This document shows, one piece after another, positions 2,751 to 19,882 of a stretch of DNA of 32,000 bases. Positions within the stretch are counted from its first letter, which is position 1. Each line of letters opens with the position of its first letter. The notes beneath the pieces were generated by a model. That model was not told the DNA's origin. It saw nothing but the letters and a program-made list of their open reading frames with translations, and ran no database searches. Both the position numbers and the translations under genes were made by a program. Source of the DNA: Cuniculiplasma divulgatum (GTDB lineage: Archaea; Thermoplasmatota; Thermoplasmata; Thermoplasmatales; Thermoplasmataceae); NCBI RefSeq assembly GCF_900083515.1, contig NZ_LT671858.1, positions 1,080,001-1,112,000 of the forward strand, given 5' to 3'.

Positions 2751-3737
2751 GTGCCAGAATCCTTCACTCAACAATTGAAATATTATGAGCTTAAAAAGAG
2801 CCAAAAAGCCCTAGTATCACTTAGTTTTCTATGTCTCTTCAAGGGTAAGGAAACTCTTCTTGAAGATTCTCTGAATAGCATTGTTGATATAGCTGAAGAG
2901 TCTGGAATGGATTATGAAATAATAATAGTAAATACCACGCTGCTCCCAATTAATTCAGTATCCACTGAAGGAATAAGAGTTGAAAAGCCACTGAAAATTG
3001 CAGATTATGGATATTATAAAAGGGGTCAGGCTAAAAATGAAGCCTTTAAAAAAAGCACTGGAACACATATAGTTTTATTTGATCCTGAAAAAGTTTACGA
3101 TATTAAATTTTCAGATGTCCTGTACAATTTTGTAAATCAGCGTGAGAAAAGGATGTTATACAGTGAATTCATAGTTATTCCCAGAGAAATACTTACAGAG
3201 GTAAATGGGTGGAACGACCTTTCTGTTTCAGAAGATTTAGATTTATTTGCAAGGATAAGTCAGGAGTATAACATCCTTTTTTATATAACAAATGGTCAGG
3301 AGTCAATTGAGAGATTCCTTACTTACAAACCAACCCAGATATTCGCATCGAAAGAATTTCAGCGAATGATGAAGGAGAAAAGGAGTAAAGTAATTACTGA
3401 TCTTTTCATGGGATGCAATTATGGACTTAGAGATGCACTTCTCTTATCCCATAATGAGAATGTGAAACTCAAGATAAGAGATTATATGTCCCTTTATGCC
3501 TCATATTTCTTGGTAAAAATAAGAAGATACAACCGAGGAAAGAAGAGTAACTTTACCACAATAATGGAATCCATGTTCGAATCAATCATCCTTCAGGAAT
3601 ACGAAAAGGTGAAAATAGAGAGTTATCCCCTCAACATAAGTCTTGGAAAAACAGAGATTCGATATCTCATGGTTAAAAGCGACATATTTCCCAAGATATC
3701 AAAAACCCTTGACAAAATAATAAAAAGAGAGAATTAA
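2751..3737 (+). CDS. Degenerate GT2-like (GT-A fold) glycosyltransferase-like protein
   Basis: 328-aa ORF with a GTG start. GT2-like layout: ALVSLSFLCLFKGKETLLEDSLNSIV ... YEIIIVNT ... RGQAKNEAFKKSTGTHIVLFDPEKVYD. The usual DD and DxD acidic positions read VNT and DPE. Confidence 0.5.
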   Translation: MPESFTQQLKYYELKKSQKALVSLSFLCLFKGKETLLEDSLNSIVDIAEESGMDYEIIIVNTTLLPINSVSTEGIRVEKPLKIADYGYYKRGQAKNEAFKKSTGTHIVLFDPEKVYDIKFSDVLYNFVNQREKRMLYSEFIVIPREILTEVNGWNDLSVSEDLDLFARISQEYNILFYITNGQESIERFLTYKPTQIFASKEFQRMMKEKRSKVITDLFMGCNYGLRDALLLSHNENVKLKIRDYMSLYASYFLVKIRRYNRGKKSNFTTIMESMFESIILQEYEKVKIESYPLNISLGKTEIRYLMVKSDIFPKISKTLDKIIKREN

Positions 3738-4768
3738 ATTTTTTCGAAATCTCTTCCCCTATCCTGTCTCTTTATCATCCAGCCTGGGTAAAGTTCCCTA
3801 TCTTCAGAAACATCATCCAGTCTCTTAACCTGCTCTGCTGTTAGATTCACATCAAGAGTCTTCATGTTTTCTTCAAATTGCTCCAGAGTTCTTGCACCAA
3901 CCAGAACTATTCCCTTTTTTGCTATTACCCATGAAAGTGCAACATTTGAAAGTTTGCAATCCTGTTCTTTTGCTATTTCTTCTGCGACCTCAAGTACAAA
4001 TCTTGCCTTTTCCTGATCGAATGGTGGAAATACCCCTCTATCGCCAAACCTGGTACCTGCTTTCGCTTCAACTTTCTTGCCATACTTTCCTGATAAAACT
4101 CCACCGTGAAGTGGACTCCATGCAAGCAGTGATAGTCCATCATGATTCATGTATGGCAACACCTCCTGCTCTATATCCCTGTTCAAGAGAGAATAATTCA
4201 TCTGTGCCGAATGATACGCCTCAAAGTGGTTTTCTCGGGCCACAGAATTGAATAGTGCCATTTGCCATGCCTGAAAATTTGAAAATCCTGGATAATCAAT
4301 ATCCCCTCTTTCGACAAGATCCTGAAGTGTTTCAATCGTTTCTATTATTGGCACATGATAGTCAAACGAATGCATTTGATAAAGCTCCACGTGATCTGTT
4401 TTCAATCTTTCAAGACTTCCCTTTATGGATTCCCTTATATGATGTCTTGTTAGACCAATCTGATTTATGCCTTTTCCAGTTCTCCCTCTTACCTTTGTGG
4501 CTATGTGAATCTCATCTCTAAACGACTTCAGGGCCTTTCCAAGAGCTATTTCAGATTCTCCTTCATCATATACGTCCGCAGTATCGAAAAGGTTTATTCC
4601 ATATTCGTATGCTCTCTTCACCATTTCATTTGTCTGTTCCTGGCTTAATCCACCGAGTTTCCAGCTGTTCTTGTCGCCAAATGTCATTGCCCCAAGAGCC
4701 ATTACTGAGACATACAATCCTGACTTTCCCAGTCTTACATACTTCATAAATGAATAATACAAGTGCAT
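3734..4768 (-). CDS. Aldo/keto reductase (Tas/YajO, Kv-beta-like subgroup)
   Basis: MKYVRLGKSGLYVSVMALGAMTFG, DTADVYDEGESEIALGKAL, LYQMHSFD and LLAWSPLHGGVLSGKY are classical AKR blocks. The real start is probably ATG at 4747 (MKYVRLG). Its stop overlaps the convergent gene's stop in TTAA. Confidence 0.9.
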   Translation of the reverse strand: MHLYYSFMKYVRLGKSGLYVSVMALGAMTFGDKNSWKLGGLSQEQTNEMVKRAYEYGINLFDTADVYDEGESEIALGKALKSFRDEIHIATKVRGRTGKGINQIGLTRHHIRESIKGSLERLKTDHVELYQMHSFDYHVPIIETIETLQDLVERGDIDYPGFSNFQAWQMALFNSVARENHFEAYHSAQMNYSLLNRDIEQEVLPYMNHDGLSLLAWSPLHGGVLSGKYGKKVEAKAGTRFGDRGVFPPFDQEKARFVLEVAEEIAKEQDCKLSNVALSWVIAKKGIVLVGARTLEQFEENMKTLDVNLTAEQVKRLDDVSEDRELYPGWMIKRQDRGRDFEKI

Positions 4769-4813
4769 ATTAAACCGTTATGACATAATATTTTTAAGGA
4801 GAAAAAATCACGA

Positions 4814-7126
4814 ATGATGAATGCAATAAAGATTCTTCTCCCTGTGGTCCTTGTTTCAATCTTAATACCTCTTATACCAATTACCGGTGAGATTAATAGT
4901 CATAATATAAAATCCCCGGAACAGCAAGTGACAAATTCCAATACATTAAAAAACATTTATATTTATAATAATTTTACTATAAATACCACAAACCAGAATA
5001 TTGCAAAGTCTTACATGCTGATATTTGAGGGTCAAAAACATATATTTCTTCAAATCCGGACTAATCTATCATTTGAGAATGAGATAATAGTTACCAAGGG
5101 AACGAATCTTACAATCGAAACACCTTCCGCAGGATACGAAGTTGGAATTTGCAACTCTGACTTTCTCTTTAATGGATCCTTGAGTTTTGATGGTGATAGA
5201 GTTCAAGTTTCTGATTCCATAATTGGTAATAATTTAAGTCATATCAGAATGTATTACGCCAAAGACATGATGGTTTTTAGAAATTCAACTTTCAGGAACC
5301 TAAATTCATCAAAAGTAGTATACAGAAATGTTGATTCGCTAAGACAAAGTTCCCAACCGATTAGTGCTGCTGGTAGTTTTACATATAGTTATATCCAAAA
5401 CACAACCCATAAATTCCCCATAAGCGAGATTAAATTTAAAGGAAATTTTTCATACAATGGAAGCGGTATTTACCTAGGAATGGCATTCACCTTTGGTTGT
5501 AATTCCATAAGCAATAAGATTAATATTACAGCGGGAAATGGCAATTTTGAATCAGCTATCTACATGGTACATCCAGTTTATCTAAAGAGTATTTGTAATG
5601 ATGATAAAATTGTAAACATCAGTATGCCATATGGTTCAAACCTAACTATCTGGAAATCTTCTATATGTTTTATTTCCAATTCAACGTTCAATATTACTGG
5701 ATTTAGTACGAACTACATTGTGCTGAATGACACACATCTGGTTACACTTAACTCTTCATTCTCTGCTAATTCATTGCCTTTCACAAACTCGGGCTTTTAT
5801 AATCTGAAGAAAGAAGGATTTCTATTGAACAATGGATCAGAACTCATAATGATAGGATCGTATTTCTCTGGAAACAATCTCAGTTCTGAATCTCCGGTTA
5901 TAACAACAGATAATTCATTATTTTACTTCCTACCCTTACTGAGTGTTACTTATTCCATGTACCATAAAATTATATATTATCGTCCTGTGGGGATTTATCC
6001 AGCAGGTACGGTTAAACAAGATTTTAACCTAAGTTGTATCCTCGACAGTAATACTTATTCATATGGTACTAACACTTCCATTATCATCCCGGCGTATAAA
6101 CAGGGGAGTAACAAATGTATGAATTCTATATTTTCCTTTACAATGTTTAACAAAACACAATATTTTTCAATATCGTCAAATGATATTTTTAAATTAGGGT
6201 CTTATACATACACAAAAACATATTATGATATTCCATATGTGAATGTAAAAACTGAGATCTCATACAACAACTCATCCATTTTTCTAAATATATCTGCAAA
6301 TGAATCTATTTACAAACCAATCAACGTAACATATATTACCAAATTAAGTTATGATAATTCAACTGAGATATCCAAATATGACCTAAAAATCACTTCAGAG
6401 AAAAACTACTCATACGCTTTTAATATTCCCAGAAAAAGGAGCCTATACTATGAAAACATTGAGGTTAACTCTGAACTAAGATACTTCAACACCGTAAAGA
6501 ATGTGACTGAATATTATATGAAAGTTTTCACTATTCCCCCTCTTTTTTCAGTTTTTATTCTAAAGTCAGTCAACCTTTCATATGGTTCCAATTTCTCGGT
6601 TTACATTGGTAGTCACTTATATCAAAGCTCCAATGGAATCATTGAATTCAGAAATGTGAAACAATGTCTAAACGTTCTAACAATGAATTCAGGCTTCATG
6701 GCACCAGAGGAAAAGAACATTACAGTTCACCCAGGTTTAAATTATATCAAATATAAGATAGAGTCAGGCAAGGTGGTTTTTACCGGTACTCTTTCTGAAA
6801 AACTTATAATAAGCGTAGGCAACACGAACTATGAATATTCAAATGGGCTATCAATTACCCTAACATATGGAAACCACACAATAATGTTGAACAATTCCGG
6901 AAAAGTTACATTTATGGATATTTTCGTACATAGTAATATGACAAGTATTTACCTGTATCAAAGGAATTTAAAACCCCCAATAGATTGGAGCGCTGAAGTT
7001 CTTCCTATATTGCTTTCTTCCCTTGCCATATCTGCAATATACAATATTTCCAGAAAGAAGTTAAGAAGAATTTGTCCTGTTTGTATGCAGGAAGTAACTT
7101 TTGATCGTAAACACTCACACGAGTAA
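4814..7126 (+). CDS. Large exported surface (glyco)protein with signal/anchor sequence, C-terminal TM helix and short Cys/His cytoplasmic tail
   Basis: 770-aa ORF with an N-terminal hydrophobic signal (ILLPVVLVSILIPLIPITG). About 37 N-x-S/T sequons by manual count. C-terminal helix VLPILLSSLAISAIY followed by SRKKLRRICPVCMQEVTFDRKHSHE. AAGGAG lies 12 nt upstream of the ATG. I recognise no family. Confidence 0.8.
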   Translation: MMNAIKILLPVVLVSILIPLIPITGEINSHNIKSPEQQVTNSNTLKNIYIYNNFTINTTNQNIAKSYMLIFEGQKHIFLQIRTNLSFENEIIVTKGTNLTIETPSAGYEVGICNSDFLFNGSLSFDGDRVQVSDSIIGNNLSHIRMYYAKDMMVFRNSTFRNLNSSKVVYRNVDSLRQSSQPISAAGSFTYSYIQNTTHKFPISEIKFKGNFSYNGSGIYLGMAFTFGCNSISNKINITAGNGNFESAIYMVHPVYLKSICNDDKIVNISMPYGSNLTIWKSSICFISNSTFNITGFSTNYIVLNDTHLVTLNSSFSANSLPFTNSGFYNLKKEGFLLNNGSELIMIGSYFSGNNLSSESPVITTDNSLFYFLPLLSVTYSMYHKIIYYRPVGIYPAGTVKQDFNLSCILDSNTYSYGTNTSIIIPAYKQGSNKCMNSIFSFTMFNKTQYFSISSNDIFKLGSYTYTKTYYDIPYVNVKTEISYNNSSIFLNISANESIYKPINVTYITKLSYDNSTEISKYDLKITSEKNYSYAFNIPRKRSLYYENIEVNSELRYFNTVKNVTEYYMKVFTIPPLFSVFILKSVNLSYGSNFSVYIGSHLYQSSNGIIEFRNVKQCLNVLTMNSGFMAPEEKNITVHPGLNYIKYKIESGKVVFTGTLSEKLIISVGNTNYEYSNGLSITLTYGNHTIMLNNSGKVTFMDIFVHSNMTSIYLYQRNLKPPIDWSAEVLPILLSSLAISAIYNISRKKLRRICPVCMQEVTFDRKHSHE

Positions 7127-7133
7127 GCTTTTA

Positions 7134-9410
7134 TCAAAACCTGATGTTTGAAACGCTGAAGTTCTGTGCTGATGTTCCATTGGTATAAAGTTCGTAGTTA
7201 AATACTGTTGTAACGGGAACAATATGGAACATATTGCTTATTGCATATATCCTGGTGAAATTTATATTTCCATATCTTTGAATAAATATGTACTGGTTTA
7301 TACCTGAATAATACGTATTTCCACTTACTGTTCTATTCATCCCAATGTAAATATCATAGATTCCATTTATAGTCATTTCTACTCCAACAAAATTTTTAAT
7401 CTTGTCATTTGTCACAGAGGTCCCATTTCCTGAGTAGGAATAATTAAAGTTAAGATTATCCCCTGAATTCTTTAAATAAGATAGGTTTACTGCAGAATTT
7501 GAAAGCCTTATACAGTTAATCTTCGAGATATTATGATCGGGTGAAAGGGAAATCGTAAAACCGTTACCTGATTTACCATTCCCGTTATTTAAGTGGTAAT
7601 TAAATCGATTACTGATCTGACTTGTGTCAACACCCCAGCATAAAAATGGAGATTTCAGGTTGTTTGTTGGATATTGAAGATTGTAGTTTGCAATCCCTAT
7701 TCTGTTTATCTTTGGAGCTTTGACAGTAATATAATCACTAAGAAAGTTATAGTATGCCTGAATCCTAAAGGTGGTACCCTGTTTCAACAGATATGCATAT
7801 GATTCAGGATATGCGGTTACATAATTTTGCCCAACATGAAGTGATGAAGATGCGTACCAAAGCATGCCATTATAGTTACCTTCCGTAGCGGTACTGGGAA
7901 TTATTCTAAAATAAATTGGAGAGGTAAGATTAGAACCTAGCGCTGGCTGGTAAGTGATGCTGATATTCATAGATGTTATGTATCCAGGAATGCACTGCTG
8001 ATCTGACATATTTTCAACTGCATTTATGTGGTAAATATTACTATCATTATCATTGTATGATAAATAGATCGACCCGGCAGTCGTTAAAGATATAATTATT
8101 ATAACTATTACTGCGAACGTTATATTCTTCTGCAAATATTTCCTGATACCTGTTATATAAATACCTGTGTTTAGTGGCTTTGCCCTAATATCAGAGAGCG
8201 TTGGTGGTTTTATGTTTTCTTCTCTTAAATAATCTGCAAAACTTATAACGATTAAAAGCGACCAGTCAACAATATACCCAAGCAGTACCCTGTAATTTAC
8301 AAGGAACATGAGCATAGGAAAGATAAATAGTGCGTACTTCAGCTTACTGTAGAAACGTACATAAAAGAGGAAGGTAATTATTATCGTTGCTAAGAATATA
8401 AGTGTAAAAACAGTGGATGGAATTTTAAACAATCCTGTGAATGAAAGTTCCGAAAAACCTATGCCTATACCAAGAACAGGCTGGAATTCGGCTTCGACGA
8501 TGTTCCTAAGCCAGTCATAAGGCTGCATAATTATAAAAGGAAGGTTGGTGAGGAGAAAAGAAAACGCGGCGAGACTAAAGAAGACGAAAGACTGCTTGAA
8601 AGATTTTCCTTTTTCCATGAAAATCATAAAGATAAGAAACGGAAAGGCAACTATAGCCAGCTGCTTGGATGAAATTGATAAGCCGTAAAATAGGCCAGAT
8701 AGCCAGGGTTTTTCCCTGAAGATATAGGCCAACACAAGAAAGAAAATCCATAGTATATCAGTTGAACCTCCTATTGAAAGCCCGAATGTATATACACTTA
8801 ACATTATTATTAAGGAAAAATAAGGTAAAATCTTCTCCATATGAGTTTTCCTTAAATATAGAAAAACAGCCAGAAAATTAAGGGCTGAAAATATGAATAA
8901 GGTTGTATAATCAGGAAGATGGAAATATACAACTGGTAGAAATGCAAGAACCGACATTCCAGGATATAACAATATTTCCACCAGTTTACCATTCAATCCC
9001 GGTGTTACATAAAGTGAATATGGCTTTATGTAACTGAATGCACCAAGCATGTTGCTTTTAATATATGGGTCTTTGCCCTCAAGAAAAATTTTCGCAGCAT
9101 ATGTTTGAAGTATAATTTCATCGGTTAATGCATTGGGATATAATGTTGATATAACAAAGAAAAGTTGTACAATTGATAACACAAAACCAATATAAGGAAG
9201 GTTTTTGATAATTTTTGATTCTTTTATGCTGGTTAGAAAAACAAACATAAGAATAATTCCTAGAACGACTAGGATTACTCCATTAATTATTGAACCATAA
9301 TCTAGATAACTCGTATAATTTATAGATATGAATGGTAAAATAATGAATACTAAGCCAAAAACAAAATAGCGGATTCGGCTCAACTTCTTAACTTCGGTTT
9401 CTGACTTCAT
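7134..9410 (-). CDS. Polytopic GT-C-like membrane glycosyltransferase (GT87/DUF2029, PimE-like) with large C-terminal sequon-rich ectodomain
   Basis: 758-aa ORF. The N-terminal ~400 aa are multi-TM with a first-loop motif TDEIILQTYAAKIFLEGKDPY, then TDILWIFF and LSISSKQLAIVAFPFLIF. After one more TM helix comes a ~300-aa Asn/Ser/Tyr-rich extracellular domain. It is a paralogue of 10715-12304. The CDS call is firm; the family call is motif-based only. Confidence 0.6.
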   Translation of the reverse strand: MKSETEVKKLSRIRYFVFGLVFIILPFISINYTSYLDYGSIINGVILVVLGIILMFVFLTSIKESKIIKNLPYIGFVLSIVQLFFVISTLYPNALTDEIILQTYAAKIFLEGKDPYIKSNMLGAFSYIKPYSLYVTPGLNGKLVEILLYPGMSVLAFLPVVYFHLPDYTTLFIFSALNFLAVFLYLRKTHMEKILPYFSLIIMLSVYTFGLSIGGSTDILWIFFLVLAYIFREKPWLSGLFYGLSISSKQLAIVAFPFLIFMIFMEKGKSFKQSFVFFSLAAFSFLLTNLPFIIMQPYDWLRNIVEAEFQPVLGIGIGFSELSFTGLFKIPSTVFTLIFLATIIITFLFYVRFYSKLKYALFIFPMLMFLVNYRVLLGYIVDWSLLIVISFADYLREENIKPPTLSDIRAKPLNTGIYITGIRKYLQKNITFAVIVIIIISLTTAGSIYLSYNDNDSNIYHINAVENMSDQQCIPGYITSMNISITYQPALGSNLTSPIYFRIIPSTATEGNYNGMLWYASSSLHVGQNYVTAYPESYAYLLKQGTTFRIQAYYNFLSDYITVKAPKINRIGIANYNLQYPTNNLKSPFLCWGVDTSQISNRFNYHLNNGNGKSGNGFTISLSPDHNISKINCIRLSNSAVNLSYLKNSGDNLNFNYSYSGNGTSVTNDKIKNFVGVEMTINGIYDIYIGMNRTVSGNTYYSGINQYIFIQRYGNINFTRIYAISNMFHIVPVTTVFNYELYTNGTSAQNFSVSNIRF

Positions 9411-9467
9411 ATACAGATCAAATAAAACTAAATTTAAAAGAAGTTGTTAAAGATTGTTATTGTATCA

Positions 9468-10457: not shown

Positions 10458-10520
10458 TATAGGTATGTTGCGCGATTCGTTATATGTCGGAATTATGATA
10501 GATAGTTCAGGAATAAAGCT

Positions 10521-10526
10521 CCCCCC
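10521..10526. repeat. C6 (G6 on the coding strand) homopolymer between an out-of-frame ATG (10539) and the GT2 reading frame
   Basis: Read directly: ...gct cccccc atat... . Loss of one base would fuse ATG-TTG-ACT-ATA-TGG-GG to the SFIPELSIIIPTYNE frame. Confidence 0.9.
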
Positions 10527-10609
10527 ATATAGTCAACATAATATCTTTTAGGATATTAAATTTTTTCTATGTCAATATTTAAAAATATATTGCTAGTTTA
10601 AAAGAGTAT

Positions 10610-10625
10610 TTATGCATCTGCATAA
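10610..10625. repeat. Perfect 7+7 palindrome TTATGCA-tc-TGCATAA in the intergenic region upstream of the Dol-P-Man synthase gene
   Basis: Read directly. The arms are 10610-10616 and 10619-10625 with a 2-nt spacer, which is too short for a hairpin loop. That favours a dimeric protein-binding site. Confidence 0.6.
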
Positions 10626-12304: not shown

Positions 12305-12441
12305 TATGTAGAATGGGCCTGAATAACCAACATAACCATATATGCTATATGGAAGATAAATCAGGAGAATACCAAGAGCAAGGAATCCAATCCTCTGGAT
12401 TATAAGATCAAAGTTCTCAAGATTCTCCCTTTCTATTTAAA

Positions 12442-14277: not shown

Positions 14278-14332
14278 ATCTACTTCGTAACTGTGATCAA
14301 TTCAATGATTTAAAATTATGCAATATCGAAAA

Positions 14333-14342
14333 CATATATAAT
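14333..14342 (+). promoter_or_regulatory. TATA-box-like element (CATATATAAT) about 25 nt upstream of ATG 14362; leaderless GT operon promoter
   Basis: Motif and spacing were read directly in the 84-bp divergent intergenic region. Confidence 0.45.
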
Positions 14343-14361
14343 CAGAGGCAATGCTGAACCA

Positions 14362-15474
14362 ATGTCGATAGCCATCTTTCTGACAACTGACCTAAAAATG
14401 GGCGGAGGAGTGGAAAGATGGACTTTGAATACAGTAAAAGGAAGACCAAATGATCAAAAGATAATAATTATTTCGACAGATTATGCTGATAGAGCCAGAT
14501 TTTCAGTGGTCAATCAAATTTCACAAATTGACCATGAACAAAAACTTAATTTGATTGAAAATAAATTTAATTTTTTGAGAAGATCTAAAATGCTTTCTTT
14601 CCTCTTAGATAATGCAATTATACCAATTATGCTGACATTTTTTAAAAGATCATATTCCAAAAAATTAAATTTGTCGGGCGTTGAAATAGTATATTTAACA
14701 AAGAACCAGTACTGGAAACTGTTTAAAGGAAAGAAGATAGTTGGAAGTAATCATACAGAATTTGGCAATGATGGTTTTATCTCCAGACTAAAGGCAAAAC
14801 TGTACAGAAGTGGTATAATCTACAGGGATATCTCATATTTTCACGTATTTCCAGGCAGGGAAAAAATAGAGAAAATTATAGGAACGAAAGCCGAAGTTGC
14901 AGTCATTCCAAATGGCACTACATCCAGAAACTGTAATAAAAAAACAGGAGATTTAACCAGATTTCTCTTTGTTGGGAGACTTGAAACAATAAAGGGTATT
15001 CAAATTCTGCTTACTGCATGGACAAACATCAAAAGAGAAGATTGTTACCTTGATATTGTTGGTGCTGGAACACTGACGGAGGATAGCTATTTAGGATTAA
15101 AAAATGTAAATTTCCGGGGAATTGTAAGTGATGAGGAACTAAATAAAATATATTGCAAAAGCGATGTTTTTATTTACCCTACTCTCTGGGACTCATTTCC
15201 AAACACAATTATAGAAGCGATGTCAGCGGGCTGTAAGATAATAACCTCCAGATTTCTGAAAGGAGCCTTTGGTGGAAGCGGAAACGAATCGTTTCTGACT
15301 TTCGTAGAACCGAATACAAGTTGCATTATAGAAGAGATAAATAAGGCTGCAGACAACCTGGATGAAACCAGAAAGCAGGGAGAACTAACCTATGAATTCT
15401 TTAGAAAGAACTATGAATTAGCCATGGTCAATGAGAAATTTTTCAACTTTTTAAACAAAATAAGAAACGAATGA
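14362..15474 (+). CDS. GT4-family (GT-B fold) glycosyltransferase
   Basis: FLFVGRLETIKGIQILL and SDVFIYPTLWDSFPNTIIEAMSAGCKIITS form the typical GT4 C-terminal nucleotide-sugar domain with an E-x7-E block. Confidence 0.85.
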   Translation: MSIAIFLTTDLKMGGGVERWTLNTVKGRPNDQKIIIISTDYADRARFSVVNQISQIDHEQKLNLIENKFNFLRRSKMLSFLLDNAIIPIMLTFFKRSYSKKLNLSGVEIVYLTKNQYWKLFKGKKIVGSNHTEFGNDGFISRLKAKLYRSGIIYRDISYFHVFPGREKIEKIIGTKAEVAVIPNGTTSRNCNKKTGDLTRFLFVGRLETIKGIQILLTAWTNIKREDCYLDIVGAGTLTEDSYLGLKNVNFRGIVSDEELNKIYCKSDVFIYPTLWDSFPNTIIEAMSAGCKIITSRFLKGAFGGSGNESFLTFVEPNTSCIIEEINKAADNLDETRKQGELTYEFFRKNYELAMVNEKFFNFLNKIRNE

Positions 15475-16310
15475 CTGTTTTGGGAAAAATGAAGGCAACT
15501 AAAAGATTTTTACATATGAATAAATTAGCTTCTATGAATATACTTGTTACGGGAAGCAAAGGGTTCATAGGAACAGAGATCATGAAGTGCCTTCAGGAAA
15601 ATGGTTATAGTCCGGATGGCGTAGATATTGGAGATAGTGTAGATGAAAAAAAGAAATATGATATTATACTTCACTTTGGAGCCAGAACACTCATAAGGAA
15701 TTCATTTTCTAAACCATATGAGTATTTTGAAGATGGATTAGGTCTTACCATGAAATATCTTGAGCTTGCCAGAAAACATGATTCACTATTCCTCTTCCCT
15801 TCATCAGGATCAACTGCTGAACCTTCTAATCCCTATTCCCTAACCAAAAAACAGGCTGTAGAATGGATAAACCTTTACAGAAAACTGTATTCCACAAGAG
15901 TAATCATCTTCCGCCTTTTCAATATATATGGAACGACTGCAAGAAAGGGTGCAATATATCTTTTTACCAATGCAGCACTTAAAGAACAGACCGCAACAAT
16001 CTATGGAGATGGAAGCCATGTAAGGGATTACGTCAATGTGCTTGATTTAGCCAAAACAGTTCTTGAAGTTGTAAATGGAAATATAAACCCGGGAGATTAT
16101 GAAATTGGTTCTGGTGTGGGAACGAGTGTTAATGAAGTTATATCAATGGTAGAAAAGGTAACTGGAAAAAAGTTAAAAACAGAGAAAAAGCCGTTCATAG
16201 TTGATGAAGCAGACGAATTGATAGCCCATAATACAATTGTAAAGAACCCGATGAAACTTATTGACGGTATAAAGTTAATAAGGGACAGTCTTGTAACGGA
16301 AAACAAATGA
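15471..16310 (+). CDS. NAD-dependent sugar epimerase/dehydratase (short-chain dehydrogenase fold, UDP-glucose 4-epimerase-like)
   Basis: ILVTGSKGFIGTEI (GxxGxxG Rossmann motif) and PYSLTKKQ (YxxxK catalytic pair). ATGA overlaps the preceding gene. The functional start may be ATG 15534 (MNILVTG). Confidence 0.85.
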   Translation: MTVLGKMKATKRFLHMNKLASMNILVTGSKGFIGTEIMKCLQENGYSPDGVDIGDSVDEKKKYDIILHFGARTLIRNSFSKPYEYFEDGLGLTMKYLELARKHDSLFLFPSSGSTAEPSNPYSLTKKQAVEWINLYRKLYSTRVIIFRLFNIYGTTARKGAIYLFTNAALKEQTATIYGDGSHVRDYVNVLDLAKTVLEVVNGNINPGDYEIGSGVGTSVNEVISMVEKVTGKKLKTEKKPFIVDEADELIAHNTIVKNPMKLIDGIKLIRDSLVTENK

Positions 16311-17395
16311 ATATTGCACAAACCAGTCATCATTACTACCCACATTCCGGTGGAACTGAAACTGTAGTAAAGACTGTGGTAGATGCATTGGCTTTAAGGA
16401 ATAATACGGTTCATGTTTTTTCCGACTATGAAGACCTGAAGCAATTAAAGGATGAGAAAAACATATTATATCACGGTATTAGACTAAAAAGAGTGGGGAA
16501 GTTCAGGTTCCCGGCATCCGGATACTGGAAAGAAATTGAAGATTCTGATTGCGATATTCTTCATGTGCAGGGACAGAGGGTATGGAGCTCTGATTACCTT
16601 TATACTCACCTGAATAGAATCAAATCAAAGAAAGTTTTTACTGCTCATGGCTATTATCAGCTAATTTACGGCGGTATGATTAACAGGCTTTATTATGGCA
16701 GGTTTATGCCCTCATTTCTCAATAAATTTGATAAGATAATCTGTCTAACAGATGTGGAAAAGCGAATTTCTGAGAGAATGTTTCCTAAAATAACAAATAA
16801 AATAACTGTTCTTCCAAACCCTGTGGATTTCAAAAGGATGGATGAAATTTCATTAGACAGGGGTGTTCTGGAAAAATACAATCTGGTTGAAAAAAACTTT
16901 TTTATACATGCAGGTGGGCTTCAGAGGAATAAAAATATTGAATTTATACTGGAAGCAATGAAGGGGTTAAAAATTCCATTAGTTCTATGTGGAAACATAC
17001 CAGATACTAATTATTTTGAAGAAATTAAGTTAAAAGCCACTCAGATGAAAGTGGAGATAAGGGTACTGGGTTCCATAAATGAGGATGAACTATTTTCACT
17101 TATTAGAAAAGCGAGGTTTTACCTATCTGGATCTATCTTTGAAGGATTCGGCATATCCATGGTTCAAGCATCCTATCTTGGTACTATGGTAATCGCAAAC
17201 AACGCAGGCATTGCCACCGAACTACAGGAGATGGGGGGTCTAAAAATTGCAAATAGCCCAGAACAGATGCGAAAGATTATTGATAGTGAAATGAAGATAG
17301 AGGATCATGAACAATTGAAAGAATCTCTAAAAAAAAGATTTTCAAAGGATGAAATAATAGACAGACTGATAAAGCTCTACGGAGAGTTGATATGA
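16307..17395 (+). CDS. GT4-family (GT-B fold) glycosyltransferase
   Basis: FIHAGGLQRNKNIEFILEAM and YLSGSIFEGFGISMVQASYLGTMVIANN are GT4-type blocks. The second acidic residue of E-x7-E reads Q. ATGA overlaps occur at both ends. Confidence 0.8.
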   Translation: MNIAQTSHHYYPHSGGTETVVKTVVDALALRNNTVHVFSDYEDLKQLKDEKNILYHGIRLKRVGKFRFPASGYWKEIEDSDCDILHVQGQRVWSSDYLYTHLNRIKSKKVFTAHGYYQLIYGGMINRLYYGRFMPSFLNKFDKIICLTDVEKRISERMFPKITNKITVLPNPVDFKRMDEISLDRGVLEKYNLVEKNFFIHAGGLQRNKNIEFILEAMKGLKIPLVLCGNIPDTNYFEEIKLKATQMKVEIRVLGSINEDELFSLIRKARFYLSGSIFEGFGISMVQASYLGTMVIANNAGIATELQEMGGLKIANSPEQMRKIIDSEMKIEDHEQLKESLKKRFSKDEIIDRLIKLYGELI

Positions 17396-18384
17396 TAGAA
17401 AAAGTCTCTGTAGTAATAACTGCCCATAATAGAAAAAAATATCTTTTGGAAGCAGTTAACTCAGTGTTGCATCAGGTGAATCCTGGTGTTGAAATTGAAA
17501 TCGTGGTAGTGAAGAATTTCGTTGACGATAAAATAGATTCTTTCCTCATGAATTCTGGTGCAGTGAACATATATACAGATGAAGAGAGTTTTGGGAGTAA
17601 ACTCTCCCTTGGAATCAAAGCATCTTCAGGGAATATAATCTGCTTCCTTGATGACGACGACATGTTTAATCCTATTAAAATAGCACTAATAAGAAAGATT
17701 TTTGATGAAAACAAGGGGCTTTTATTCGTTCACAACGATATCCAGATCATTTCTGAGGAAACTACATGGAATACCGCTCGGGCTACTAATGAAGAAGCGA
17801 CTAAGTTTAAAGTATACAGTAGCGAGAAACTAAGTGGGAGAGAATGGGGAAAAATTCTATCTTCCAGAGCAGACTGGTACGTATCATGTGCTTCCATGGA
17901 TGCGCCATTCGCAAAATCTATTTCACAAATAGTGTATCAATCTAATAGAAGTTTAGATAAGATCCTGTTTCTTCTTGGTACAGGTAAAGAGGCATCGTTT
18001 GGGCTTTGCAAAAATCGACTTACTATGTATAGAAAGCATGAAAGTATTACTGGACTTAAAACGGATGTCACAGATTTTAGAAACAGGAGGCTAAAGTTCA
18101 CCAAAGAGTCAATTGAAAATCTAAGAAGAACTTTCAAGAGTTATATAAAAGGAGTGAATAATTTACCGTATAACTATATGCTTTTGAAGATGAAGGGAAA
18201 TTTAGCAATATACGATAAATATAGAAGGGGCAAAACTTTTAGAATAATGACCTCTGAATTAAAACATTTTATAAGATATGGTGGGGAAGAATATGCCTTA
18301 CTGTCGATTCTTCTATTTCTAAATATTTTTTCAAACAGGCTCTCTATTAGAGTATTTCGGTATATCCAAATAAGAGATATCTAA
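17392..18384 (+). CDS. GT2-family (GT-A fold) glycosyltransferase
   Basis: VSVVITAHNRKKYLLEAVNSVLHQ and GNIICFLDDDDMFNPIKI (DxD region). ATGA overlaps the upstream gene. Confidence 0.85.
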   Translation: MIEKVSVVITAHNRKKYLLEAVNSVLHQVNPGVEIEIVVVKNFVDDKIDSFLMNSGAVNIYTDEESFGSKLSLGIKASSGNIICFLDDDDMFNPIKIALIRKIFDENKGLLFVHNDIQIISEETTWNTARATNEEATKFKVYSSEKLSGREWGKILSSRADWYVSCASMDAPFAKSISQIVYQSNRSLDKILFLLGTGKEASFGLCKNRLTMYRKHESITGLKTDVTDFRNRRLKFTKESIENLRRTFKSYIKGVNNLPYNYMLLKMKGNLAIYDKYRRGKTFRIMTSELKHFIRYGGEEYALLSILLFLNIFSNRLSIRVFRYIQIRDI

Positions 18385-19139
18385 ATATTTCTGGAAAAGA
18401 ACTCTGATTCGATCTTATCGATTATTGTCTTGATCTTGCTAGATTTTTTGTGCTTATTTATAATCCACATACCAAAAACTGAAAGAAACATTTTTGGGAT
18501 GGTCTTGAAGACCCTAAGTTTTGAACCGTGCTCGTTGTTCCATTCTATACCCACTTCAACCGGCTCAAGGCCATATTCCATGGAGTGATAGATTACAGAG
18601 ACATCAAATGCCCAGTCAAAAACCCTTACCTTCTGTATTATCTCCTTCAATGATTTTGATCTGAAAACTTTAAGGCCACACTGTGTATCCTTGATGTCCA
18701 TTCTGAATAGAAAAAATACGAAATAATGGAATACCCTTCCAAATATGATCCTGTAACCTGGTTGCCTTACTTTTATTTTAGAACTTCTCATCCACCTTGA
18801 TGAAACAACAAAATTTCTATCCGTTAGAAGGGTTGACAACCTATTCACTTCTGAGGCGGGAATAGAACCATCTGCATCAACATATGCTATTATATCTCCA
18901 GTAGCCTTTTCTATTCCTTCCTTAACCGCTCTCCCCTTTCCAAGCCTGTGATTGTGCTGGATTACCTTACAATCAGGACAGATAGATTCTACGATTTCAG
19001 GTGTTCTATCCGATCCGTCAAAAACAACAATAATCTCCTTAAGATTTTCTACAGAACCCTTAATGTCTTTAATGGTAGAAGCAATGCGAGATTCCTCGTT
19101 GTATGCAGGGATAACTATAGATATTGTCTTATTTTCCAA
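18381..19139 (-). CDS. GT2 polyprenol-phosphate glycosyltransferase, Alg5/Dol-P-glucose-synthase-like
   Basis: ISIVIPAYNEESRI, IIVVFDGSDRT, GDIIAYVDADGS and DIKDTQCGLKVFRS are Alg5/GtrB-like blocks. TTG start at 19139 with a TATA-like element about 26 nt upstream. Confidence 0.8.
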   Translation of the reverse strand: MENKTISIVIPAYNEESRIASTIKDIKGSVENLKEIIVVFDGSDRTPEIVESICPDCKVIQHNHRLGKGRAVKEGIEKATGDIIAYVDADGSIPASEVNRLSTLLTDRNFVVSSRWMRSSKIKVRQPGYRIIFGRVFHYFVFFLFRMDIKDTQCGLKVFRSKSLKEIIQKVRVFDWAFDVSVIYHSMEYGLEPVEVGIEWNNEHGSKLRVFKTIPKMFLSVFGMWIINKHKKSSKIKTIIDKIESEFFSRNI

Positions 19140-19160
19140 GTTGCTGAGTATTAATTGAAT

Positions 19161-19170
19161 GGTTTTAAAC
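19161..19170 (-). promoter_or_regulatory. TATA-box-like element (GTTTAAAACC on the minus strand) about 26 nt upstream of the TTG start at 19139
   Basis: Motif and spacing were read directly; they imply a leaderless transcript. Confidence 0.4.
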
Positions 19171-19212
19171 TTTATTACGAATTAAAGAAATAAATAAGCA
19201 TATTATTATTTT

Positions 19213-19255
19213 TTAATGTGATTTAACTGCTTAAAACTGATTGTGCTCACATTAA
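19213..19255. repeat. 9-bp perfect inverted repeat TTAATGTGA ... TCACATTAA with a 25-nt spacer
   Basis: Arms are at 19213-19221 and 19247-19255. It lies between the stop of ORF 19310-19882 and the promoter of the GT2 gene at 19139. Confidence 0.6.
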
Positions 19256-19309
19256 TTTTAGTTTATGAAAACTCAGCGAAAAGTGGGATTTTTAATATTA
19301 TGGTCATAA

Positions 19310-19882
19310 TTAATTTCTCCCAAGATACTTCCTTGGAATTGCTACCAGAAACAGCATTAGAAGTAGGAAAGCAACAATAAGAGAAATATACTGATTATCT
19401 AACTCCAGTTTTGGCATATATACGTTGGTTGCGCTGTGCCTGGTTGATTGAAGAATAACGGGAACTGAAGTGTTACCTTCTATTGTTATATTGAGATAGT
19501 ATGGCAAATATGTATTATTACTGAAATTTATTTGAAATCTATAAAACCTGTTTTCGTCCACTTTAAAACGTAGATCTGAAAGGTTGGATCCTGTTACATT
19601 CATTGCCAGTCCTCCATTGATGTAGAATCTTCCCGATGGAGTTATATTTGAATTTGCCTCAATTAGGATAAATTTTATTTGCGTGTGTTTCAATGGAAGT
19701 AGCACCTGATGAGATGAAACCTCCGTAGACACGTTTATTTTAGAAATGGAATCATTTATCCAATTCGTTCGATCTCTTAAAATGTTATGATCCTGTGTCT
19801 GATACAAATATATGGATGATAACCCGGAAATAATAATCATAGAAATTAGAATGATTGTTATCAACCTTGGCAACCTGTTCAT
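19310..19882 (-). CDS. Small bitopic exported protein (N- and C-terminal TM helices, sequon-rich middle), function unknown
   Basis: 190-aa ORF. It has ITIILISMIIISGLSSIYLY at the N-terminus and ISLIVAFLLLMLFLVAIPRKYLGRN at the C-terminus. Several N-x-S/T sites are present (NDS, NVS, NIT, NVT, NLS, NFS, NNT, NIT, NTS). A TATA-like TTTAAGTATT lies about 28 nt upstream. Confidence 0.6.
   Translation of the reverse strand: MNRLPRLITIILISMIIISGLSSIYLYQTQDHNILRDRTNWINDSISKINVSTEVSSHQVLLPLKHTQIKFILIEANSNITPSGRFYINGGLAMNVTGSNLSDLRFKVDENRFYRFQINFSNNTYLPYYLNITIEGNTSVPVILQSTRHSATNVYMPKLELDNQYISLIVAFLLLMLFLVAIPRKYLGRN

Follow-up and report, generated by a model that had tools for sequence, protein, structure and literature searches.

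Here, we examined an island of 13 ORFs lying within a 32 kb window, the whole stretch of Thermoplasmatales DNA that was analysed (Table 1). All 13 ORFs were found at the coordinates listed in a first-pass annotation of this DNA, and the Pfam families of most of them were confirmed. Two ORF starts in that list were wrong, as the true CDSs reach upstream to 10514 (DPMS) and 12436 (GTC529).

Table 1. Features of the island (positions counted from the first nucleotide of the window).
Feature	Position	Strand	Description	Basis
328-aa protein	2751..3737	+	possibly divergent GT-A/GT2-like enzyme	Pfam Glyco_trans_2_3, below cutoff
Aldo/keto reductase	3734..4768	-	aldo/keto reductase	Pfam Aldo_ket_red, 242 bits
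Exp770	4814..7126	+	signal peptide, large ectodomain with 38 N-x-S/T sequons, C-terminal TM anchor, cytoplasmic CPxC...H tail	
GTC758	7134..9410	-	polytopic GT-C-like enzyme, GT87/ALG3-like family, sequon-rich C-terminal outside domain	Pfam GT87
DPMS	9468..10514	-	type-III dolichyl-phosphate-mannose synthase, 348 aa (corrected CDS), GT2 catalytic domain fused to 4-TM GtrA-like domain	Pfam GT2, 91 bits; GtrA_DPMS_TM, 67 bits
DPMS start context	10512..10526	-	G6 Shine-Dalgarno-like run (10526..10521), 6-nt spacer, ATT start codon (10514..10512)	
GTC529	10715..12436	-	second GT87/ALG3-like GT-C, 573 aa (corrected CDS), C-terminal beta-sandwich domain	Pfam GT87, 22.7 bits
DUF2079 protein	12442..14277	-	membrane glycosyltransferase with predicted GT-C fold (GT-C_A type), C-terminal outside domain	Pfam DUF2079, 79 bits
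Divergent intergenic region	14278..14361	.	84 bp between minus-strand GT-C operon and plus-strand cytoplasmic-enzyme operon	ORF coordinates
GT4a	14362..15474	+	GT4 glycosyltransferase, first of four-gene operon	Pfam Glyco_trans_1_4, 76.6 bits; Glycos_transf_1, 64 bits
Epimerase	15471..16310	+	NAD-dependent nucleotide-sugar epimerase/dehydratase	Pfam Epimerase, 95.9 bits
GT4b	16307..17395	+	GT4 glycosyltransferase	Pfam Glycos_transf_1, 68 bits; Glyco_transf_4, 64 bits
GT2b	17392..18384	+	GT2 glycosyltransferase, soluble type	Pfam Glycos_transf_2, 57 bits
GT2c	18381..19139	-	small GT2 of polyprenol-phosphate-glycosyltransferase type	Pfam GT2, 105 bits
Exp190	19310..19882	-	small bitopic exported protein, 9 sequons	

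At the start of the DPMS gene, the arrangement GGRGGG-N6-ATT-CCT-GAA is common to the window and three related loci (L001, L002 and L003), all four lacking an ATG, GTG or TTG in frame. The ATT of L003 has an in-frame TAG directly 5' of it, the same context is found unchanged in L029-L031, and coding constraint was seen in the upstream extension. Judged from the sequence, the GTC529 CDS probably starts at ATA 12436, 5 nt past the stop codon of the DUF2079 gene, and the two genes are probably translationally coupled. Between the window and L001, 8 codons of the N-terminal extension of GTC529 differ synonymously and 0 non-synonymously. AUU (DPMS) and AUA (GTC529) are the apparent start codons of two island genes.

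The stop and start codons of the four genes in the plus-strand operon overlap by 4 nt. Pfam searches confirmed their previous assignment as two GT4 enzymes, one GT2 enzyme and an NAD-epimerase, and the best NCBIfam matches of three of them (GalE, 82 bits, for the epimerase; Agl16, 66.7 bits, for GT4b; AglG, 33.6 bits, for GT2b) were far under the respective cutoffs. GT2c had been described as an Alg5/Dol-P-Glc-synthase-like GT2. Its polyprenol-phosphate type was supported, the best solved relative being the catalytic domain of PfDPMS (E = 3.4e-11), but the label Alg5-like is not specific; the best NCBIfam matches of this type (AglJ, Dol-P-hexose transferase and PpgS, about 49-50 bits) were all under their cutoffs. 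By sequence, GT2c may serve as a second synthase of a Dol-P-hexose donor or, like AglJ, as an initiating enzyme. The GT2 call for the 328-aa protein was left unconfirmed: it scored 19.7 bits against a Pfam cutoff of 27, had no match in PDB, and gave a probability of 0.3% in hhalign against the island GT2. Its family alignment contains 'LFDPE' and an invariant 'SED' motif, and the gene is syntenic in L001, L002, L005, L010 and L011. The aldo/keto reductase, which was correctly recognized before, occurs in L001, L002 and L010, is missing from L005 and L011, and is probably a passenger gene.

The previous description of the protein at 9468 as a Dol-P-Man-synthase-like GT2 with a GtrA-type tail was fully supported. 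In addition to its Pfam domains, it matches PfDPMS over the full length (5MLZ, E = 5.6e-69; query residues 4-346 vs chain residues 25-372), its catalytic, Dol-P-binding and polar-pocket residues are conserved, and so are all type-III residues as defined in PMC12992685 except for A90S and I179V. Besides these two substitutions, the difference from the Pyrococcus furiosus enzyme (PDB 5MLZ, 9EP0), with which homology is full-length, includes R341N, as in other non-Thermococcales sequences, and the apparent AUU start. In type-III DPMS, the TM domain is dispensable for catalysis and able to hold flipped Dol-P-Man (PMC12992685), and the GtrA-like domain in the island is a candidate Dol-P-Man translocator. 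Thus, the statement that the locus has no flippase is valid only for a Wzx-type oligosaccharide flippase. Thermoplasmatales were already listed among the orders with type-III DPMS in the same study, which concluded that this enzyme is a hyperthermophile trait (PMC12992685); a non-hyperthermophilic host of this order, whose members grow at 37-60 C (PMC12448462), fits uneasily with that conclusion.

Three large membrane proteins had been proposed to be GT-C-like, and Pfam and Foldseek searches upheld this for the DUF2079 protein by fold and for GTC758 and GTC529 at the family level. The structural model of the DUF2079 protein (pLDDT 79.6, pTM 0.80) is clearly of the GT-C fold: the top 21 Foldseek matches against PDB were all GT-C enzymes (STT3, AftA, PglB, DPY19, ArnT and AglB), at E values of 2.5e-5 and higher and a probability of 0.99-1.0, and residues D64, D162 and H164 are invariant. 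GTC758 and GTC529 are paralogs (cross-matches with 26-30% identity, E 1e-35 to 1e-43) in an uncharacterised family between GT87 (PimE) and ALG3. Their GT87 scores are marginal, 26.0 bits for GTC758 against a cutoff of 25 and just under the same cutoff for GTC529. Within the GTC529 family, Pfam GT87 was matched by 5 of 14 members and Alg6_Alg8 by 3 of 14, and some members of the GTC758/GTC529 family exceed the Pfam ALG3 cutoff. In the GTC529 model, whose confidence is moderate (pLDDT 68.8), yeast ALG3 was the only match to the whole membrane domain (probability 1.0, TM-score 0.56 on target, E = 0.012), and the top 50 structural matches did not include PimE. The GT-C assignment of the two paralogs is therefore a family-level one, based on these Pfam families, on the structural resemblance to ALG3 and on an invariant acidic motif that follows a TM helix.

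This motif is represented by D59/E60 of GTC529, invariant across 15 diverse homologs, and by D97/E98 of GTC758, part of a 'TDE' motif at 96-98 after TM3 in a protein with about 13 predicted TM segments; D64 of the DUF2079 protein also lies just past a TM helix. According to the positive-inside rule, all these acidic residues should face outward. In the GT87-like proteins, we take the place of a conserved acidic residue behind an early TM helix to be that of the catalytic Asp58 of PimE. The C-terminal domains of the GT-C proteins carry sequons (in GTC758, 13 of 14 lie past residue 429), which places these domains outside the membrane. Three family-invariant residues (R458, N469 and Y511) lie in the GT-C C-terminal domain.

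Two exported proteins had been noted as dense in N-x-S/T, and sequon enrichment was measured against 500 shuffles. The 38 sequons of Exp770 compare with 15.6 ± 3.4 in shuffles, none of which reached 38. Its orthologs in five other genomes retain 35-43 sequons together with the Cys/His tail at identities down to 23%, and no Pfam or NCBIfam family was matched by Exp770. It is a candidate acceptor glycoprotein and a candidate component of an exterior protein layer. Exp190 is also enriched in the window (9 sequons vs 2.8 ± 1.4; 0 of 500 shuffles reached 9), but its enrichment is absent from the orthologs, which have 5 sequons in L001 (58% identity) and 4 in L002 (28% identity), neither count being significant. 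Its tie to the island is weak. Sequon counts of the cytoplasmic enzymes were near expectation.

Comparison of gene order showed that the gene set is co-conserved among relatives. The island is collinear in L001, L002, L010 and three assemblies of the same species. The cytoplasmic operon with its divergent GT-C genes (module B below) occurs on its own in L007-L009, L032 and L033, and the divergent arrangement around the 84-bp region is found in all of these as well as in L001 and L002. On the other side, the GTC758 gene is transcribed directly after the DPMS gene, and this pair of synthase/translocator followed by GT-C is kept across Thermoplasmatales: 14 of 16 distant loci (L012-L027) have a DPMS-like or GtrA-like gene directly upstream of a GT-C gene. 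In L018 the two overlap by 4 nt at the GT-C start, and in L024 (Ferroplasmaceae) the upstream gene is cut down to a GtrA_DPMS_TM-only protein that ends 2 nt before the GT-C gene. Between close genomes, glycosyltransferase identity is 72-80%, compared with 98-99% for flanking genes.

As reported before, the window contains neither AglB nor a Wzx/MATE-type flippase: the three large membrane proteins lack not only WWDxG but any WW dipeptide, and Pfam searches covering all ORFs of 100 aa or more in the 32 kb detected no STT3/AglB, Polysacc_synt, MatE or MurJ family. An AglH-type initiating enzyme was also not found in the window, nor an AglB signature in about 600 kb of related loci. With these absences, N-glycosylation is suggested by gene context only; AglB has been reported elsewhere in Thermoplasmatales genomes (PMC10354927). 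A heavily sequon-loaded protein with a membrane anchor accompanies the GT-C gene in conserved order in six genomes and in the cultured Oxyplasma, a distant relative (29-31% identity) in which a 928-aa protein with 50 sequons adjoins the GT-C. The Oxyplasma neighbourhood also includes a homolog of the 328-aa protein, a DUF2079 protein, two Polysacc_synt (Wzx-type) flippases and GmhA/GmhB-like heptose-pathway genes. Heptose is a component of the N-glycan of T. acidophilum (PMC11407970), whereas the Thermoplasma lipoglycan consists of mannose and glucose and does not contain it (PMC12448462).

Given the GT-C fold of the DUF2079 protein, the family-level support for the GT87-like paralogs and the co-conservation of the genes, outer-face elongation from polyprenol-phosphate sugars, as first proposed, is the best reading, and we consider this general mechanism likely. 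From family and fold assignments, residue conservation and gene order, we infer the donor sugars, the acceptor, the direction in which sugars are transferred and a translocating role of the DPMS TM domain as follows; with moderate confidence in the explanation as a whole, we regard the island, which comes from a Cuniculiplasma-related lineage, as a conserved surface-glycan assembly locus of Thermoplasmatales, archaea that are acid-loving and have no wall, with two modules working in two stages. In module A (DPMS followed by GTC758, plus Exp770 and the 328-aa protein), the type-III DPMS would form Dol-P-Man at the cytoplasmic side, the four-helix GtrA-like part of this fusion would probably pass the lipid-linked mannose to the outer leaflet, and GTC758, encoded directly downstream, would move mannose onto an outer-face glycan. 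In module B (the operon at 14362-18384, divergent from the DUF2079 and GTC529 genes, plus GT2c), two GT4, one GT2 and the epimerase would assemble a polyprenol-borne oligosaccharide in the cytoplasm, the DUF2079 GT-C and GTC529 would lengthen it outside, and GT2c would give either a second Dol-P-hexose donor or a Dol-P-hexose primer. The oligosaccharide flippase, AglB and the initiating enzyme (unless this is GT2c) would come from elsewhere in the genome.

The most likely acceptor, which we name tentatively, would be an N-linked glycan, either lipid-linked or already on protein (cf. Haloferax AglS), decorating membrane-anchored glycoproteins at the exterior, including the co-encoded Exp770. 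Circumstantial evidence leans this way, namely the synteny with sequon-rich proteins and the flippase and heptose genes of Oxyplasma, although mannose-rich chemistry would suit a lipoglycan equally well. As the specific product, the mannan-type tetraether lipoglycan of the first proposal gained no support from our findings. It is possible but rather unlikely that the GT-C enzymes act instead on this mannose-rich lipoglycan, lengthening it at the outer face, with GT4s acting like PimA/PimB on the cytoplasmic face, in parallel with mycobacterial Ppm1, PimE and the Mpt enzymes in LM/LAM. Dol-P-Man synthase, GT4s and GT87-like GT-Cs are the enzyme classes of LM/LAM synthesis, no lipoglycan genes are assigned in the literature searched, and the order-wide DPMS/GtrA and GT-C pair, which includes wall-less Ferroplasma and Thermoplasmataceae MAGs, is as expected of a lineage-wide membrane glycolipid. 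However, this lipoglycan is chemically defined in T. acidophilum only, gene order ties the GT-C closely to a sequon-dense glycoprotein, the heptose genes and Wzx flippases of Oxyplasma fit a heptose-containing N-glycan rather than a mannose/glucose lipoglycan (PMC11407970), and the fast divergence of the glycosyltransferases is more in keeping with a surface antigen that varies than with a membrane lipid that is conserved.

Direct mannosylation of protein by the GT87/ALG3-like GT-Cs (PMT-like O-mannosylation of Ser/Thr, with the Exp770 family as dedicated substrate) appears improbable. Although some Dol-P-Man GT-Cs are known to O- or C-mannosylate proteins, the fold matches of the DUF2079 protein include PMT and DPY19, a GT-C gene adjoins that of a Ser/Thr-rich exported protein in several genomes, and R458, N469 and Y511 could form an acceptor-binding site, no PMT Pfam match was obtained, and in the nearest families, GT87 and ALG3, the acceptor is a glycan. 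Moreover, N-x-S/T enrichment far above composition expectation in the syntenic protein points to N-linked glycans, and the cytoplasmic GT4/GT2 enzymes sharing the locus imply prior assembly of an oligosaccharide. It is very improbable that the DUF2079 protein is a divergent oligosaccharyltransferase replacing or supplementing AglB, which would account for the absent AglB and agree with STT3, PglB and AglB as best structural matches, since it has no WWDxG, WW or STT3 Pfam match, has one conserved Asp, not DxD, in its first outside loop, resembles ArnT, AftA and DPY19 almost equally (a similarity only at the GT-C_A class level), and AglB is reported elsewhere in these genomes (PMC10354927).

Outer-face elongation as outlined for the two modules is a variant of the known scheme of synthase, translocator and GT-C. 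Among archaea, AglD/AglR/AglS of Haloferax volcanii provide a precedent alongside other agl genes, with the same order of steps: a cytoplasmic GT2 makes Dol-P-Man, the sugar crosses the membrane, and a polytopic mannosyltransferase adds mannose to an outer-face N-glycan (PMC4973528). Where Haloferax has the separate Wzx-like AglR, the type-III DPMS of the island carries a GtrA-like domain of its own in the same chain, and there are three GT-Cs instead of one, assigned to other families (GT87/ALG3-like and DUF2079). The bacterial three-component system (GtrB-type synthase, GtrA-type translocator and GT-C) has the same logic and adjacent genes, including a synthase of polyprenol-phosphate sugar and a small four-helix GtrA-family membrane module (PMC11127046, PMC8035078), and the Ferroplasmaceae arrangement, where a GtrA-only protein is encoded directly upstream of the GT-C, closely mirrors this layout. 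The island differs in its dolichol-type carrier, archaeal host and combination of synthase and translocator in one polypeptide. Since the polar-pocket residues of type-III DPMS are missing from true GtrA proteins (PMC12992685), its translocation mechanism may also differ.

The ER-lumenal ALG pathway (DPM1/ALG5 donors; ALG3/9/12 and ALG6/8/10 GT-Cs) shares with the island a two-stage assembly, in which GT4-type steps in the cytoplasm and Dol-P-sugar synthases (two candidates in the island) are combined with several GT-C steps beyond the membrane, and the ALG3 resemblance of the GTC529 model and of some family members has been described above. Lumenal ALG enzymes are considered unique to eukaryotes, with only distant DUF2029-type relatives in prokaryotes (PMC4973528); the sequence similarity of the island proteins is marginal and no orthology is claimed, and the DUF2079 protein belongs to another GT-C structural class, that of STT3 and ArnT. 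The mycobacterial Ppm1/PimE route to PIM, LM and LAM likewise uses GT4s on the cytoplasmic face, a polyprenol-phosphate-mannose synthase as donor and GT87-type GT-Cs outside, in line with the weak GT87 matches of the island GT-Cs. The differences are GT87 scores at or under the cutoff, the absence of PimE from the top 50 matches of GTC529, two to four extra N-terminal helices, and a C-terminal beta-rich outside domain of roughly 110-300 residues that PimE does not have.

Thus, the island very probably completes a cell-surface sugar coat outside the membrane from lipid-carried sugars, and it offers testable candidate genes for a surface layer with no assigned makers.

Every ORF that the first-pass annotation had listed in the island was recovered where it had been placed, and most of its family calls were borne out by Pfam (see the table below). 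One call was not confirmed: the ORF at 2751 (328 aa), taken to be a GT2 enzyme, reached 19.7 bits against a cutoff of 27 on the Pfam GT2 model. NCBIfam contained no model for the three large membrane proteins (GTC758, GTC529 and the DUF2079 protein), nor for either exported protein (Exp770 and Exp190). The G+C content of the island (0.32-0.36) was lower than that of its flanks (0.38-0.40), which carry housekeeping genes for a FecCD-type ABC transporter, termination factor FttA and a proteasome beta subunit. Four plus-strand genes are joined by 4-nt overlaps, and a gap of 57 nt separates the gene for dolichyl-phosphate-mannose synthase (DPMS) from the following gene, GTC758. No Rfam match was found in the window, and a scan for sigma-70 promoters and terminators, a model that is uninformative for an archaeon, gave fewer promoter-like sites than shuffled sequences. 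Two further small ORFs were noted. A 175-aa cytoplasmic protein encoded between the island and FttA belongs to no Pfam or NCBIfam family and is 92% conserved in related locus L001 and 66% in L002. The other is a 207-aa ORF in which only residues 61-102 match the exonuclease domain of family-B DNA polymerases (30.5 bits). A gene of equal length is conserved in L029-L031, and the ORF could be what is left of a polymerase or a domain that stands alone.

Features of the island and its surroundings, with positions in the window and the basis of each assignment
Feature	Position	Basis
ORF of 328 aa	2751	
Aldo/keto reductase	3734	Pfam
Exported protein Exp770	4814	
Sequence encoding the C-terminal tail of Exp770	7000-7126	
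GTC758	7134	
GT2 with GtrA/DPMS transmembrane domain (DPMS)	9468	Pfam; GtrA_DPMS_TM 67 bits
Start region of the DPMS gene	10512-10535 (-)	
GTC529	10715	
Region of the N-terminal extension of GTC529	12304-12445 (-)	
DUF2079 protein	12442	Pfam, 79 bits
GT4 enzymes (GT4a, GT4b)	14362 and 16307	Pfam
NAD-dependent epimerase/dehydratase	15471	Pfam
GT2 enzymes (GT2b, GT2c)	17392 and 18381	Pfam
Exported protein Exp190	19310	
175-aa protein	19968-20495 (-)	
207-aa ORF	24012-24635 (-)	

The window was 99.2% identical at the nucleotide level to contigs of three independent assemblies, including the NCBI metagenome-assembled genome GCA_002504745.1; among named organisms, the closest were Thermoplasmatales and Cuniculiplasma. 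When all window proteins were compared by tblastn with 28 related genome loci, the gene set proposed in the first-pass annotation was found to be co-conserved. Collinearity extended over the whole island in L001, L002 and L010 and over part of it in the Cuniculiplasma loci L004-L006 and L011. Identity to L001 was 98-99% for the flanking genes, and also for the aldo/keto reductase and FttA, 72-95% for the glycosyltransferases (GT2b, GT4a and the DUF2079 protein at 72-78%) and only 58-59% for the exported proteins. This pattern of divergence is typical of a surface-antigen locus and, together with the lower G+C of the island, would be expected under diversifying pressure.

Parts of the island were also observed separately. 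Of the island, L007-L009, L032 and L033 contain only the block in which GT4, epimerase, GT4 and GT2 genes diverge from the DUF2079 gene and GTC529. In L032 and L033, which represent a more distant Thermoplasmatota lineage, this block (region 13500-20050) lies a few kb from genes for ATP sulfurylase and PAPS reductase, and also near genes for ComA (phosphosulfolactate synthase family) and a B12-binding radical SAM protein; to tie these sulfur genes to the C-sulfonated sugar of Thermoplasma N-glycans would be pure speculation. A GT-C gene related to GT87 and ALG3 is immediately preceded by a DPMS-like gene in 14 of 16 distant loci (L012-L027), Ferroplasma and Thermoplasmataceae metagenome-assembled genomes among them, and in L018 the two overlap by 4 nt. 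Our scan of the genome collection for this pair used two exact peptide patterns, which could miss copies in Thermoplasma acidophilum, T. volcanium and Picrophilus.

The gene model of the donor synthase at 9468 is too short. In the ORF as called (9468..10457), the GT2 fold is missing its first strand, and the open frame upstream encodes 'IPELSIIIPTYNES'. The extended coding sequence (9468..10514, 348 aa) aligned end to end with the solved and characterized DPMS of Pyrococcus furiosus (PfDPMS; E = 5.6e-69), residues 4-346 of the query corresponding to residues 25-372 of the chain. Type-III DPMS enzymes are defined by explicit residues (PMC12992685). The donor/metal motif 89-DADxQHPP-96 reads D89-S-D-L-Q-H-P-P96 in the window protein, with only position 2 changed (Ala to Ser). 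Residues that bind the phosphate of Dol-P are all present, namely SRY (S116-R117-Y118, with Arg117), Arg131 (R130), Ser135 (S134) and Lys178 (K177), the KIL of PfDPMS at Lys178 being K177-V-L here. So are the polar pocket (Asn248 as N242, Asn277 as N272), the gating Phe338 (F334) and the four-helix transmembrane domain. Arg341 of PfDPMS corresponds to Asn337, and it is replaced by Asn in all non-Thermococcales sequences (PMC12992685). Judged by the full residue set, the protein is a type-III DPMS with predicted GDP-mannose:Dol-P mannosyltransferase activity. The enzyme itself is not new, because Thermoplasmatales are already among the orders given as having type-III DPMS (PMC12992685).

The transmembrane domain of DPMS bears directly on an earlier claim that the window lacks a flippase. 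This claim stood for the known families, since no Polysacc_synt/Wzx, MatE or MurJ match was found among window ORFs of at least 100 aa, but it needs qualification with regard to that domain. In L024 (Ferroplasmaceae UBA567), the corresponding gene (8752-9528) has lost the GT2 domain and kept GtrA_DPMS_TM (64 bits), and it stops 2 nt ahead of the GT-C gene (9530-11383); the same partial match was observed in L021, L023, L025 and L026. Loss of the GT2 domain is what would be expected if the transmembrane domain had a function of its own serving the GT-C enzyme. Such a 'domain deletion' in nature argues that the domain has a role of its own, possibly in translocation. The locus provides comparative evidence on the question, raised in 2026, of whether type-III DPMS flips its own product.

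The other donor synthase proposed earlier, the GT2 enzyme at 18381, had been described as Alg5-like. Its place in the polyprenol-phosphate GT2 class was supported by its nearest solved relative, the catalytic domain of PfDPMS (E = 3.4e-11), and by its best NCBIfam matches of polyprenol-phosphate type (AglJ, haloarchaeal Dol-P-hexose transferase and PpgS, at about 49-50 bits and far under the cutoffs), but the Alg5 label proved not to be specific. This enzyme could supply a second donor, or an AglJ-like Dol-P-hexose base for the glycan.

Two genes of the island are shortened in public gene calls, DPMS to 322 aa (instead of 348) and GTC529 to 529 aa. For DPMS, no in-frame ATG, GTG or TTG lies ahead of the conserved 'IIPTYNE' strand in the window, L001, L002 or L003. 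Common to all four is GGRGGG, a 6-nt spacer and ATT-CCT-GAA, with a Shine-Dalgarno-like run of six G residues ahead of the spacer and ATT in the window; in L003, an in-frame TAG is located directly 5' of ATT. The extension differs from that of L002 by 10 synonymous and 2 non-synonymous codons, as compared with 0 and 11 in the other two frames. A homopolymer sequencing error or a pseudogene was ruled out by the presence of the G-run and ATT in seven independent assemblies from four species-level lineages and by purifying selection on the upstream codons. A programmed frameshift from an out-of-frame ATG (~10528) is unlikely, as L003 lacks this ATG and has the in-frame stop right before ATT. For GTC529, the called ATG is preceded by 44 codons for an N-terminal transmembrane helix that is seen in longer homologs. 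This extension begins at ATA (12436..12434; ATG in L002), directly after an in-frame TAA and 5 nt past the DUF2079 stop codon, which is overlapped by a Shine-Dalgarno-like AGGTGA motif, and it shows 8 synonymous and 0 non-synonymous codon differences from L001. Based on this evidence, both genes appear to start at non-canonical codons, DPMS at AUU and GTC529 at AUA, the latter probably by re-initiation after the DUF2079 stop codon (termination-reinitiation coupling).

The proposal that the three large membrane proteins are GT-C-like was examined by structure prediction for the DUF2079 protein and GTC529. The AlphaFold model of the DUF2079 protein (pLDDT 79.6, pTM 0.80) gave 21 best Foldseek matches in the PDB that were all GT-C proteins, including STT3, AftA, PglB, DPY19, ArnT and AglB (506-779 aligned columns, probability 0.99-1.0, best E 2.5e-5) and covered its whole membrane domain, in agreement with the proposal. 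D64, located just past the first transmembrane helix in the first outside loop, D162 and H164 are all invariant in an alignment of 23 sequences. A full-text search for 'DUF2079' returned no papers.

GTC529 and GTC758 are paralogs, with mutual cross-matches of 26-30% identity (E 1e-35 to 1e-43). Their scores on the Pfam GT87 model (PF09594) are marginal (22.7 and 26.0 bits, respectively, at a cutoff of 25); at E <= 0.01, GT87 was matched by 5 of 14 members of their family, and Alg6_Alg8 was matched by 3 of 14 close members. More distant relatives of ~400 aa match Pfam ALG3 (P0146, 31.4 bits, cutoff 23.6) or GT87 (P0148, 27.7 bits, cutoff 25), and one homolog carries the NCBI name 'glycosyltransferase 87 family protein'. 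The model of GTC529 was of moderate quality (pLDDT 68.8), and its sole match over the whole membrane domain was yeast ALG3 (9s6r_A; 434 columns, probability 1.0, TM-score 0.56 on the target, E = 0.012); PimE was absent from the best 50 structural matches of this model. Fifteen homologs, ranging from Cuniculiplasma to Ferroplasma, all carry the acidic pair D59/E60. This pair should face outward because the preceding transmembrane helix follows a K/R-rich loop, and we infer that it lies in the first large outside loop and supplies the acidic residue for catalysis. The C-terminal beta-rich domains of both proteins hold nearly all of their sequons and contain invariant R458, N469 and Y511. Sequence and profile searches with this family and with DUF2079 against all PDB chains found no match even at E <= 10, so only fold comparison ties the two families to GT-C proteins. 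The fold, Pfam and acidic-motif evidence therefore assigns GTC529, GTC758 and their homologs to the GT-C superfamily, at a position intermediate between GT87 and ALG3 (GT58) and not within GT87 as confirmed members. Both GT87 and ALG3 use polyprenol-phosphate-mannose. By exhaustive HMM search, this family comprised 1,505 representative clusters at E <= 1e-3, of which 245 remained at E <= 1e-30, whereas a word-indexed search had found 23; a second word-indexed search with a broadened alignment returned the same 22 proteins plus one weak match and did not reach cultured Thermoplasma.

With regard to the acceptor, the two exported proteins are indeed dense in sequons, as first described. Exp770 has 38 sequons, compared with 15.6 ± 3.4 in shuffled sequences (none of 500 reached 38), and Exp190 has 9, compared with 2.8 ± 1.4; the counts of the cytoplasmic enzymes were close to the shuffle expectation. 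Orthologs of Exp770 adjoin a GT-C gene in five other genomes and, at identities down to 23%, retain 35-43 sequons where ~14 are expected (0 of 500 shuffles reached the observed count). In the cultured Oxyplasma meridianum (L034; CP133772.1, 616885-638759), the GT-C homolog OXIME_000635 has as its neighbor a 928-aa protein that ends in a Cys-rich tail and contains 50 sequons, where 17.7 are expected, and the same locus holds a homolog of the 2751 ORF, a DUF2079 protein, an epimerase, a methyltransferase, two Polysacc_synt (Wzx-type) flippases and GmhA-like and GmhB-like heptose genes. The tails themselves deserve mention: Exp770 and its counterparts in L001, L002, L005, L010 and L011 end in a short cytoplasmic CPxC...H/C tail that is zinc-knuckle-like, and the Oxyplasma relative (L034:13083-15869) in CxxC...CxxC. 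A metal-binding cytoplasmic tail would be unusual for a surface glycoprotein.

The N-glycan of T. acidophilum contains heptose and 6-C-sulfofucose (PMC11407970), and the lipoglycan has been described as consisting of glucose and mannose only (PMC12448462); we found no genes assigned to lipoglycan in the searchable literature. Cuniculiplasma and Oxyplasma have an unordered exterior layer of ~20 nm that is probably glycoprotein, the identity of the protein being stated as unknown (PMC12448462); the Exp770 family is a reasonable candidate for it. Genes for AglB and an AglR-type flippase have been reported elsewhere in Thermoplasmatales genomes (PMC10354927). The window itself does not decide the acceptor, and this context leans toward N-linked glycans on exterior proteins. 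The main rival, proposed in the first-pass annotation, assigns these enzymes to elongation of the tetraether lipoglycan and appears rather doubtful to us. Direct O-mannosylation of proteins is less likely than elongation of lipoglycan, and we regard it as improbable. The absence of AglB from the window, noted earlier, was confirmed: no ORF of at least 100 aa matched STT3 in Pfam at E <= 0.01, the WW dipeptide is absent from all three large membrane proteins, and the window and 33 related loci (~600 kb), translated in all six frames, did not contain the AglB signature WWD[YWFN]G. It is highly improbable that the DUF2079 protein is a divergent oligosaccharyltransferase, as it fails the motif and Pfam tests, and a hidden AglB was ruled out by the lack of WWDxG, of an STT3 match and of DxD in the first outside loop.

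It is possible, and we propose it tentatively, that the locus encodes both parts of the exterior layer, namely a major sequon-loaded, anchored glycoprotein of the Exp770 family with a zinc-knuckle tail and an ALG-like extension of N-glycans outside the membrane in three GT-C steps. In the mechanism that we consider most likely for the locus, an oligosaccharide would be built on a polyprenol carrier by the GT4 and GT2 enzymes of the cytoplasm together with the epimerase, and a flippase encoded elsewhere would carry it over the membrane. The type-III DPMS would make Dol-P-Man, which its own transmembrane domain would probably deliver to the outer leaflet. Outside the membrane, the three GT-C enzymes would then extend the glycan, either while it is lipid-linked or once it is bound to protein, as Haloferax AglS does (PMC4973528), and AglB, encoded elsewhere, would transfer the glycan to sequons in Exp770 and other exterior proteins. 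Of this scheme, the folds and families, the conserved residues and the order and co-conservation of the genes were observed, and the sugars, topology, acceptor and translocation step are inferred.

The logic of the locus would be no surprise to a specialist. The scheme of a synthase, a GtrA-type module and a GT-C enzyme is well known in bacteria (PMC11127046, PMC8035078), and AglD, AglR and AglS offer an archaeal precedent. Here, these elements were likewise encoded together and co-conserved, with the GT2 and GtrA_DPMS_TM parts in one gene in the window, and the locus also resembles the mycobacterial LM/LAM pathway and the ER-lumenal ALG pathway. It differs from what is known in having three GT-C enzymes in one archaeal locus, GT-C families characterized in no organism, a fused synthase-translocator and a conserved link to a sequon-loaded anchored protein. 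If the tentative proposal for the exterior layer is true, the pathway would be the first in an archaeon to include several GT-C steps on the outer face. The locus also provides a working hypothesis for two uncharacterized GT-C families, DUF2079 and the one between GT87 and ALG3 (1,505 representative clusters). The wall-less Thermoplasmatales live near pH 0-2 with a single membrane, lipoglycan and a dense unordered glycoprotein layer. For these organisms, the locus offers a short conserved list of candidates with homologs in cultured Cuniculiplasma and Oxyplasma. Two questions thereby become testable in cultured relatives: which genes make the lipoglycan, and which proteins form the exterior layer and how they are glycosylated.
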